Part shown: positions 3,601-6,600 of the stretch, one piece after another
Position numbering within the stretch: position 1 is the stretch's first letter
Layout: each line of letters opens with the position of its first letter
Virus record (IMG/VR): IMGVR_UViG_2713896831_000009
Reading direction: 5' to 3' (one strand)
Source of the DNA: a virus
Taxonomy: Duplodnaviria > Heunggongvirae > Uroviricota > Caudoviricetes
Length of the DNA: 15,071 bases
Position numbers: made by a program

Positions 3601-6600
3601 GACGTAACTGCTCAACTATTGCTGCGCACGCCGCGCTCTGAAATTTTCGCCCCGCCGCGCTTATCAGGCTCTTACCAGCAAATGCCCCTTTGTTGGGGTG
3701 TCGCCAGTACGTGTTCACGCTGGGCGGGAAAGGCAGGATCAGCTTCATACTTTCAGGCCTCTCTCATGTAACCAGTGGGTTGCACGCAGCCTGGCGTTTT
3801 CCTCACCGGCAAGCAGTGAGCGGATAATCCCGACCGCCTCGCTGTCGTCGTCCTTCACCGCGGTATGAAGAGTGATACCCCGGGCCACGCCACGCTTTAT
3901 CGTGATGACGCCTTTTTTCTCCAGTGCGCGAAGATGTTCCACCGCTGCATTCACTGAACGGTATCCCAGCATGGTTGCCACCTCCTGATTGGTTGGCGGG
4001 AAGCCACGTTCTTTCTGATAAGAAATCAGCATATCCAGCACCTGCTGCTGGCATTGAGTTAACGTCGTCATGCCGCCATCTCCCTGACCAGTTTTTCCGC
4101 CTGCTGGCGAACCTGCGCCAGAAACGCCTCACCACATGCCTCAAGTTCATCGCGCCCGATGTAGCTGATTGCCGGTCCCTTCCAGGTCTTGTCGAAAACA
4201 GCAATAGCACCAGCGAAGAACGCTCCTGTCGGCACCTGCTTCTCATCCTTCGGGATAAACCAGGCAGGCAGTTCAAAACCAATACGCCCGCGAATAAAAG
4301 CAATATGGTCTGCATCTTCCGGCCACCAAACTTCGCTGGTGGCAGCTTTGATCAGGAAAACATAGCGCCCGCCCTTATCACGCATGGCACTGGCATGCTT
4401 CATGATGTAACGCATGCCGGTGATGTATTGCCCCTCATGCTGACTGGCGCGGCTGTATGGGGGATTACCAAAGGCAGCACCTTTAAGCTCCGCAAGACGT
4501 TCTGACCAGTCATGCGCCAGCGCGTTGTCTTCCGCCGTGTAATACGCAGCACATTTGGCGTTATCACCGTCAGTGAACAGATCCAGAACAAACGGGCCAA
4601 ACAGGGTGTTAATTCCCCAGAAAATGTTGTCCGGCGTGCGCCACTGATCACCTACTTCCTTCAGTTCATGGGCTGGTTTGTTCCGCAGTTCCACCAGCTC
4701 CTGGCAATATTTATTACTCATTAAGCCCCCACGTAATTCCCTGACAGATACCACTCATCACCCGATACAGCGCGCTTGCTGCTTTTCCGTAAACACTGCT
4801 CACGACGCGCCAGAAAATTGTTTCGTTCTGGCTGGGAGTGGCTTTCACGGAATGCCGCCATCCACACCGTTGCAGCACGACGGTATAAGCCCCTGGACTC
4901 CAGTTCTTCCGCCTGGCGGGTCAGGCACAAAATCACCCGGGGATCGTTAGTGCCGACATAGAAATTGCGCACAGGTCTGGTTTCACGAACTGGTTGTGGT
5001 TCCGGCTCCTGCGCTCTCTCAGTCAGGCGTGGGAAATGTCTGCGTGTATCTCCTTCACAACGGTGAGCCACACGCCCACTCTGACGTAACTTGCTTGCTG
5101 ACTGCAGAACGCGCTGCCGTGAGTAACCTGCAAAAGCATCCGCAATGTCTCCGGAAGTACACCCCGGATGGGCTTCAATGAATTTCTGAACTTCATTCAA
5201 AAGACTCATGATCACCCCCTGAATCCTGCCGGGATCTGGCTGTAGTCCACGTTGTCGTAACTGGCTTTGAAGTACGGGTCCTCGCGTCTGGCTGCAGATA
5301 CCGCAGGAACTTCCCAGAATTCTTCGAAATGACGATCCGGACCAAAGAACGTGACAGCCTGTTTCACAAATTGTGTGCCGCTGTTACCCATCGCAGATAC
5401 CCAGCCCGCGTAGCGTTTCACACCTTCCAGCATGGTTTCGGGGTTTACTCCCTCATTCAAACGGGCTTTCCAGGCTTTGAAGGCTGCAGATTTTGAATTG
5501 CCACCAGCACGTTTGGGATATGCCAGCCATGCCTGCTCAAACTCCGGAGAGTATTCCGGTCGGTTTGAACGAACTCGCACGGACTCATCAACTGATGCAC
5601 CAACAGCTATTGGTTCATTGACTGGTTCTTTGACTGGTTCAAAAGAGTGACTGGTTCTGGGTGAATCTCCTGCACTACCCCCTGGTGCAACTCCTGCACT
5701 ACCTGGTGAATTTGCTGCACCAGATAGTGAATTATTTGCACTACCCCCTAGTGAATCTCCTGCACCATCCAGATGAAGGAGATAGATATTACTTGAGTTA
5801 CCTTTTTCACCTTTCCGGGTGACTTTTTTTACCAGCCCGGACTCACAAAGGGCCGCAATATGATTCATCACAGAACGTTTGCTAATTTCGCACTGGTCAG
5901 CAATATGCTGGTAGCTGGGCCAGCACTCACCCTGATCGCTGGCATTATCAGCCAGCTTGATCAGAACCAGTTTTCGCAATGGATTACCCACTCGAATTTT
6001 CATCGCTTTAACCATCAGCTCCATACTCATGCTGCACCTCCGAGATGCTTCATGTTTTTTCCGGAGCGAAAGGCTATAAGCGGCATACTGACGCGGTAAT
6101 TACGGCCCAGCGGTTCACAAATCACCTTCTGGCATTCACGGTCAACCAGGCTAACACGTAGAACATGCCCTGCAGGCGTGGTGTACCACTGCCCAACTGT
6201 AGGAATTGATGTTTTTTTACGCTGAAGCAAACGGCAAATATTGAGGATCAACGGATTAAGCATGACGATGCCCTCCGCTGATATTCAGGAGACGGTGAAT
6301 ATGAAAATTAGCCTTATCCGCCAGACGAATACGTTCAGCCTGCAAGTTAAGAAGGGTTTCTACCAAAACCTGATGCGCCTGCGGATCCGAAAGAGTTACC
6401 TTGCGCAGAGCACGTAGTGCAGTTGTTACATAACTGAGTTTATGTAAGTCTTCATCATTCAGACGAGAGAGGGCTGGGACAGTAGCCATGATGGCAGCCT
6501 CCGTATGCAATGGATAACTTCCACCACCGGAAACGCCAATTTCGCTGGTGGTGAACTGAGCAGGGTTGGCGTAACCGGCGCATACGGAAACCGGCGCACC

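Follow-up and report, generated by a model that had tools for sequence, protein, structure and literature searches.

A LexA-type DNA-binding protein without a protease domain, encoded next to rusA in prophages of Escherichia coli and other Enterobacteriaceae

Introduction

Can a phage carry a LexA that RecA is unable to switch off? The question is raised by a gene of 327 bp (3745-4071, minus strand) in IMG/VR virus record IMGVR_UViG_2713896831_000009, a stretch of 15,071 nucleotides from a member of the Caudoviricetes, which is called the window throughout. The gene, referred to below as the LexA-DBD gene, encodes a protein that resembles the DNA-binding domain (DBD) of LexA and stops before any peptidase domain. 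Our answer, which we favour tentatively and regard as a serious possibility rather than a probable one, is that the product is a RecA-insensitive, dimeric LexA-type protein, which would be made early in lytic growth and would bind CTGT-type palindromes.

The LexA-DBD gene is already annotated in thousands of public records, and phage records label its product 'LexA DNA binding domain protein', 'LexA-like protein' or 'transcriptional repressor'. It has also been catalogued as pham 237 in a comparative study of Shiga toxin (Stx) phages (PMC8136144). In the full-text literature, a search that left many subscription journals outside, we found catalogue mentions only and no functional work on the protein.

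Results

Domain architecture and family membership

The gene was delimited by its open reading frame (ORF) and by Pfam, PHROG and RefSeq matches.

3745-4071, minus strand: LexA-DBD-only gene, 108 aa, ATG start, TGA stop

In RefSeq the protein is WP_000210170.1, annotated in strain GN4554 as 'LexA family transcriptional regulator'. The Pfam profile PF01726 (LexA_DNA_bind) matched residues 1-65 over profile positions 1-65 of 65 (E=2.9e-19, 69 bits with a cut-off of 23.7), the nearest solved structures were those of E. coli LexA (1lea, E=6.9e-16; 1jhh and 3jso, E=1.6e-15), and residues 2-69 aligned with E. coli LexA at 50% identity with zero gaps, so that LexA numbering can be used directly for the phage protein. 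Peptidase_S24 (PF00717) gave no Pfam match in the protein or in any of the family members (23/23), and the score on the NCBIfam lexA equivalog TIGR00498 (COG1974) was 70.8 bits, below its cut-off of 110.95, with only profile positions 1-91 of 203 covered. The DNA 3' of the ORF, where the protein stops at residue 108, is the RusA gene with no S24 remnant, and therefore the LexA-DBD gene is not a frameshifted full-length lexA. PHROG_362, annotated as 'transcriptional repressor', was matched along the whole protein (residues 1-108 on profile positions 1-106 of 106, E=1.1e-59).

The sequence-only reading had taken the protein for a LexA N-terminal domain without the S24 module, and the PF01726 match, the missing S24 match and the TIGR00498 score below cut-off bear this out. 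By membership the protein is not a LexA, since it has neither the S24 domain nor the cleavage site and its equivalog score is too low. It is a member of a wider known kind, the phage-encoded truncated LexA homologues, and it may nonetheless work as a non-cleavable LexA. The name Rrf2 family, used in some database entries, was rejected: Rrf2 matches were weak (best E=6.3e-5, 10/23 members), and LexA_DNA_bind matched 23/23 members (best E=2e-24).

Distribution

Among 5426 complete E. coli genomes, 2233 (41%) carried the 327-bp gene, in up to four copies. The viable phages mEp460 and SfV (orf42) carry the block encoding Dam, LexA-DBD, RusA and KilA-N at 97% identity, and so do 1720a-02, Stx2c-converting phages and others. 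An exhaustive HMMER search recovered relatives that share the C-terminal tail described below at 38-52% identity; those whose source was named came from Cronobacter, Kosakonia, Enterobacter, Cedecea, Klebsiella, Salmonella and Citrobacter, and the tailed family was confined to Enterobacteriaceae. LexA-DBD-only proteins in general are widespread in phages, occurring for instance in Mycobacterium phage Wildcat and in Tectiviridae.

The DNA-binding domain and its recognition helix

An AlphaFold2 model was built from the 23-sequence alignment (mean predicted local distance difference test (pLDDT) 85.4), and its N-terminal part formed a LexA-type winged helix-turn-helix (HTH). The following features were assigned, the first from a pLDDT of about 90, Foldseek and the ratio of nonsynonymous to synonymous substitution rates (dN/dS), and the second from the LexA alignment and the family alignment.

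3868-4071, minus strand: LexA-type winged HTH, codons 1-68
3916-3954, minus strand: recognition helix VNAAVEHLRALEK, codons 40-52, preceded by S39

The model places helices at residues 6-22, 28-35 and 40-52 and wing strands at 56-58 and 66-68. In Foldseek the domain superposed on DNA-bound LexA 3jso with a root-mean-square deviation (rmsd) of 1.0 Å over 68 residues at 50% identity.

According to a contact list taken from secondary sources, LexA touches DNA through S39, N41, A42, E44 and E45 (PMC3091678), N41 being named also in PMC5999292. We found that the phage protein retains four of the five (S39, N41, A42 and E45), with E44 replaced by V, and that A43, H46 and L47 of LexA are retained too in the alignment. 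P40 and E44 of E. coli LexA are thus both V in the phage protein. Its wing has no indels and the same length as that of LexA, with G61 and R64-G65-I66 retained. A passage of PMC8565304 that cites Zhang 2010 ascribes the constant spacing of SOS boxes to the wing contacts of the DBD itself, and a LexA-length wing with these residues favours the fixed 16-bp spacing of the SOS box. Moreover, the motif N-A-A-x-E-H of the phage protein is the motif of LexAs that read CTGT-N8-ACAG. A winged helix with the recognition surface of gammaproteobacterial LexA would most likely read CTGT-type half-sites. The likeness is not limited to a generic winged helix, which would have told against the sequence-only reading, because four of five contacts are kept together with A43, H46, L47, G61 and R64-G65-I66, on a backbone within 1.0 Å of 3jso.

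The C-terminal hairpin and selection

The DBD is followed by a linker (residues 69-74, low confidence in the model) and by a hairpin of two helices, assigned from a pLDDT of about 90, conservation and dN/dS.

3763-3849, minus strand: two-helix hairpin, codons 75-103 (helices 75-88 and 93-103)

A tail motif, (I/L)(I/L)(R/K)xL(L/V)...A..RA..(W/F)L, is kept across genera, and in the family alignment A97 and L101 do not vary and A93 hardly does. The tail alone had no relative among PDB sequences, and Foldseek returned no PDB match with E<0.01 that covers it. LexA has no such hairpin, and the hairpin has no counterpart at the LexA dimer interface. It is probably a dimerisation module, which would stand in for the S24 domain in that role. 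As a separate observation, the metagenomic proteins P0132, P0133, P0149, P0152, P0153, P0156 and P0159, of 140-350 aa, matched the query twice; this suggests tandem LexA DBDs, possibly single-chain pseudo-dimers.

Selection was measured as dN/dS by the Nei-Gojobori method with a custom script in three subfamilies.

E. coli-type subfamily: dN/dS of the DBD 0.016, of the tail 0.10
Enterobacter-type subfamily: dN/dS of the DBD 0.20, of the tail 0.20
Cronobacter-type subfamily: dN/dS of the DBD 0.25, of the tail 0.40

The whole-gene values were 0.06-0.30. These values indicate that the DBD and the tail are both under purifying selection. Proteins of 106-112 aa were found across seven enterobacterial genera, and longer forms (at most 165 aa) arise only through N-terminal extensions.

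The LexA alignments made with phmmer and hhalign run weakly on past the DBD, with AVGIIRSLLAGEE against GLPLIGxVAAGxP, and this weak colinearity into the linker and cleavage region of LexA suggests descent from a truncated lexA. The same colinearity is what would be expected if the gene were only a decaying, functionless remnant of a captured lexA. Such a remnant is contradicted by length and architecture conserved in seven genera, by dN/dS of 0.06-0.30 and by the presence of the gene in viable phages and in 2233/5426 E. coli genomes, and we regard it as very improbable indeed. We also considered, and rejected, that the tail preserves the LexA cleavage site and could be cleaved in trans, as the profile alignment there is of low confidence, the region is predicted to be helical and the Ala-Gly pair is not conserved: A88-G89 aligns with A84-G85 of LexA and lies within a predicted helix, not a beta-strand cleavage loop, and relatives have AN, VG, TR, DD, CS, EE and others in its place. 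With neither a protease domain nor a conserved cleavage site, the protein would not be inactivated by RecA*; the insensitivity to RecA-stimulated cleavage that had been expected of it follows, as far as sequence can tell, from the absent S24 domain.

Translational coupling and the RusA partner

The LexA-DBD gene lies between genes for Dam and RusA, with which it shares short overlaps (read as 'tcat' on the given strand).

4068-4071, minus strand: ATGA overlap of the Dam stop and the LexA-DBD start
4080-4084, minus strand: GGGAG Shine-Dalgarno sequence within the dam 3' end, 8 nt 5' of the ATG (read from the sequence)
3745-3748, minus strand: ATGA overlap of the LexA-DBD stop and the RusA start
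3359-3748, minus strand: gene of the Holliday-junction resolvase RusA (PF05866, E=1.3e-14)
4068-4721, minus strand: gene of the phage Dam N6-adenine methyltransferase (PF05869, E=1.1e-45)
4721-5215, minus strand: PerC-family (YfdN) gene, with a TAATG overlap with dam (PF06069, E=1e-9)

The coupling of the gene to both neighbours, which the sequence-only reading had proposed, is read directly from the ATGA overlaps at its two junctions.

Viral contigs supplied 216 related loci for a survey of neighbours; the loci fall into three subfamilies sharing 44-49% identity. In the three subfamilies the gene directly downstream was RusA in 80/80, 77/80 and 37/56 loci, and Dam was directly upstream in 51/80, 0/80 and 39/56, the upstream neighbour varying among Dam, PerC and a replication gene. 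Of the E. coli-type loci 80/80 keep the ATGA overlap with RusA, as do 36/55 of the Cronobacter type. Therefore, the stable unit is LexA-DBD plus RusA, with Dam optional, and not Dam/LexA-DBD/RusA.

So steady an adjacency, kept with its ATGA overlap while the LexA-DBD protein itself falls to 44-49% identity and the upstream neighbour changes, might mean that the protein works together with RusA in a module for recombination or repair, tuning RusA synthesis through the coupling or directing or limiting junction resolution. However, gene order in the lambdoid nin region is conserved in general, and the protein keeps a complete sequence-specific DBD under strong constraint. RusA is a self-sufficient dimeric resolvase, and it is present in many phages without a LexA-DBD gene. 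We consider a RusA-partner role improbable.

Position in the early-right operon

The rightward early operon, on the minus strand, starts with the cro-like ymfT, a cII-like gene and an Ash-family gene, and continues with a replication gene (HTH_36/DnaD_N), PerC/YfdN, Dam, LexA-DBD, RusA, KilA-N, a DUF968 remnant and Q. The three junctions that link PerC to RusA are start/stop overlaps, and KilA-N overlaps the 3' end of RusA. No sigma-70-like promoter was found on either strand between 3300 and 8000 (4.7 kb), where 4.3 were expected from shuffled sequences, which is consistent with one long early-right transcript. The lack of a promoter and the overlapping genes place the LexA-DBD gene in the early-right operon, most simply as a delayed-early product, which would be made after induction or infection. 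The divergent prophage repressor gene (7975-8649) encodes an S24 domain in Pfam, and induction of such a prophage therefore coincides with cleavage of host LexA.

The timing also bears on whether the protein might be a competitor or dominant negative, occupying half-sites or entering mixed LexA complexes, so that it weakens repression or shields LexA as a co-repressor. The LexA-like recognition surface and the wing are retained as such an action would need, and direct modulation of LexA by phages is known from GIL01 gp7, a LexA co-repressor, and CTX RstR. But nothing points to expression of the LexA-DBD gene in the lysogen, where LexA is intact; the protein has no similarity to gp7-type proteins, and its conserved tail lacks a counterpart at the LexA dimer interface. 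Interference with LexA of this kind seems quite unlikely to us.

SOS-box-like palindromes

When the window and related loci were scanned with an SOS position weight matrix (PWM), one strong candidate stood at the start of a late-operon gene.

671-690, no strand assigned: strong SOS-box-like palindrome CACTGTTTATTTTTACAGTA, within codons 3-9 of the late-operon DNA methylase gene

Positions 673-688 read CTGTTTATTTTTACAG, a perfect CTGT-N8-ACAG with an AT-rich spacer. The 20-mer scored 22.3 bits on the matrix, whose own boxes score 11.8-26.3 bits; the scores, on a matrix made from 20 E. coli boxes, are indicative only. The methylase gene (468-698) is truncated in the window, and the box lies in its codons for MKNTVKINSV. 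An identical box stands at 3471-3490 of mEp460, and all 78 methylase copies with a located start have it with at most one spacer change. Methylase alleles only 85-90% identical overall keep it too. There was no promoter-like site immediately upstream of the 671-690 box. Among methylase loci with at least 7 kb of upstream sequence, 63/66 carry the LexA-DBD gene; conversely, only 21/57 LexA-DBD loci carry the methylase. As the methylase copies are near-identical, the association may be one of lineage linkage.

Across the 216 loci, a box of at least 17 bits lay no more than 8-10 kb away in 43/80 loci of the E. coli type, 8/80 of the Enterobacter type and 8/56 of the Cronobacter type, and the 80 E. 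coli-type loci held 56 such matches against 3 in shuffled sequence. A dedicated cis operator was rejected on these PWM counts. Since no box in cis is obligatory, any SOS-box targets of the protein would lie mainly in trans. Counts of CTGT-Nk-ACAG with k=2-14 in the 216 loci showed no enrichment of an alternative spacing, and no other conserved palindrome stood out. The sequence-only reading had pointed to the SOS-box-like palindrome at 671-690: the palindrome is real and scores as a strong box, but most related loci are without a strong box, so that it is a possible target and not a dedicated partner.

Two further palindromes were observed. In mEp460 an SOS box of 25 bits, TACTGTATGTAAAAACAGTA, lies at 12521-12540 inside the prophage repressor gene and recurs in 18/80 related loci; its codons, which read SNTVCKNS, belong to the linker that joins the HTH domain to the S24 domain, and the methylase and repressor boxes are both intragenic and both encoded by 'NTV..NS' peptides. 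The second perfect CTGT-N8-ACAG of the window (CTGTGGTTACTTACAG, 6974-6989) is in the Ash-family ORF and is shared by mEp460 and 34 related loci. Its GC-rich spacer and a matrix score below 10 bits indicate that it is probably not a LexA site.

Binding specificity

Several findings weigh against a protein that reads host SOS boxes. E44 is replaced (by V, A, F, T, Y or L) in every family member and is retained in all genuine LexA fragments recovered here. Four subfamilies also alter E45 (to D, G, L or I) or N41/A42. Such changes are unexpected for a mimic of host LexA, whose own recognition helix should not vary among these hosts. No SOS box in cis is consistently linked to the LexA-DBD gene, with 8/80 and 8/56 loci in the divergent subfamilies. 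Further, the sole characterised phage homologue of truncated LexA, gp6 of the Bacillus phage GIL01, is an early gene product and an activator of the late promoter P3; it consists of a bare DBD with a wing, depends on K38 for recognition and binds GaCACAnnTGTGaC, not the host SOS box (PMC6182141).

These findings are what a phage-specific transcription factor that has drifted off the SOS box would leave, a repressor or activator of a few phage promoters with host SOS untouched, for which gp6 with its GaCACAnnTGTGaC site at P3 is the precedent. The recognition segments vary by subfamily (SVNAAVEH, SPNAATDM, SVNTIAGH, SSNAVLLH, SQNTVFIH) at positions 40 and 42-45, and the loss of E44 family-wide and of E45 in several subfamilies means that specificity may differ from that of LexA. 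The LexA-DBD protein also evolves faster than its neighbour between subfamilies (44-49% identity vs 71-75% for RusA), as expected of a regulator that co-evolves with its own sites. However, in the E. coli-type protein of the window S39, N41, A42, A43, E45 and H46 are exactly those of LexA, the 216 loci offer no other palindrome or CTGT spacing as a private site, and late control in lambdoid phages is already supplied by Q. We treat a drifted, phage-specific factor as less likely than not, yet as the main and a serious rival of the preferred reading.

Other features of the prophage

The window is an E. coli prophage adjoining yjjG-rimI-holD and is 100% identical to the GN4554 prophage from position 530 on. 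Positions 1-533 come from the interior of gpJ, the tail-tip gene; in the GN4554 prophage this sequence is about 20 kb away. This position implies that about 20 kb with lysis, packaging, head and tail genes has been lost between gpJ and the truncated methylase, and hence that the prophage of the window is defective. A second deletion in the element affects the DUF968 gene (2236-2397, minus strand), of which only the last approximately 50 codons are left between KilA-N and Q, with 703 bp fewer than in the otherwise identical GN4554 prophage.

Two ORFs without a Pfam match were also noted. One, on the opposite strand between Q and the late genes (1322-1768, plus strand, 36% GC), has a lipoprotein-like signal sequence (…LLSATIISGC) and its own good promoter-like site at 1303-1332; from these sequence features it looks like a moron. 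The other (12842-13561, minus strand, 239 aa) lies in an island of 32-34% GC beside the integrase, at the prophage end, and may be cargo with an accessory or defence role.

Discussion

The preferred reading, a RecA-insensitive dimeric LexA-type protein of the early lytic phase, can be put as a sequence of events, in which dimerisation, DNA target, repression and timing are inferred from what the analysis does show, namely architecture, retained contacts, fold, conservation, selection, coupling and place in the operon. On prophage induction or infection the protein would be synthesized as a delayed-early product of the rightward operon and would dimerise through its hairpin. Once host LexA had been cleaved, SOS boxes would be occupied by the phage protein, which would behave like a LexA(Ind-) acting in trans. 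The whole or part of the SOS regulon would then be closed again during lytic growth, together with any LexA-controlled genes of the phage or of rival elements. Candidates for such repression would be recA, ruvAB, umuDC, SOS toxins, colicins and the LexA-controlled antirepressors of rival prophages, and the phage would control damage signalling and competing mobile elements while providing its own junction resolvase. The full extension of this idea, that an uncleavable LexA mimic found in about 40% of E. coli strains and paired with RusA re-represses SOS after induction or infection, is conceivable, and we think it rather unlikely.

If SOS boxes are bound, a common prophage gene would give phages a direct and damage-proof control of host SOS. 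This would bear on how lysogens mutate and tolerate antibiotics, on when Stx phages develop and on the contest among co-resident prophages with LexA-controlled switches, and it would be a second, mechanistically distinct phage use of a captured LexA DBD after the gp6 activator. If a private phage site is bound instead, the protein would be no more than one of the usual accessory regulators in the nin region.

Comparison with known systems

E. coli LexA and the LexA-DBD protein share the winged HTH fold (rmsd 1.0 Å, residues 2-69 free of indels). They differ in that LexA has the Ser119/Lys156 dyad and an S24 domain serving as peptidase and dimerisation domain, all of which the phage protein lacks, and in that lexA is an autoregulated host gene whereas the LexA-DBD gene is phage-borne and lies within an early lytic operon.

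GIL01 gp6, which was compared by its description, is likewise a phage-encoded LexA DBD without a cleavage domain and the product of an early gene. It has no extra domain, in contrast to the conserved two-helix extension of 34-40 aa in the LexA-DBD protein, and it is also unlike the latter in that the LexA-DBD protein has mostly host-like recognition residues and a fixed pairing with RusA, and is encoded by lambdoid phages, siphoviruses and myoviruses, that infect Enterobacteriaceae. The LexA-DBD protein had a structural match in Tectiviridae, to a protein annotated as 'LexA DNA binding domain' (BFVD, E=4.4e-3).

The BlaI/MecI-type repressors, which also have a winged HTH followed by C-terminal helices, are comparable only as regards dimerisation. 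Foldseek matched Rv1846c and MecI weakly over the full length (E=0.02-0.08, rmsd 9-11 Å), there is no sequence relationship, and their tails have three helices as against two in the LexA-DBD protein.

The LexA(Ind-) mutants, among them LexA3 (G85D) and S119A, share the proposed action, since the LexA-DBD protein too would be a RecA*-proof operator binder that holds SOS closed. They are point mutants of the full-length host protein, whereas the LexA-DBD protein is a phage paralogue whose truncation is natural and whose putative dimerisation element is another one.

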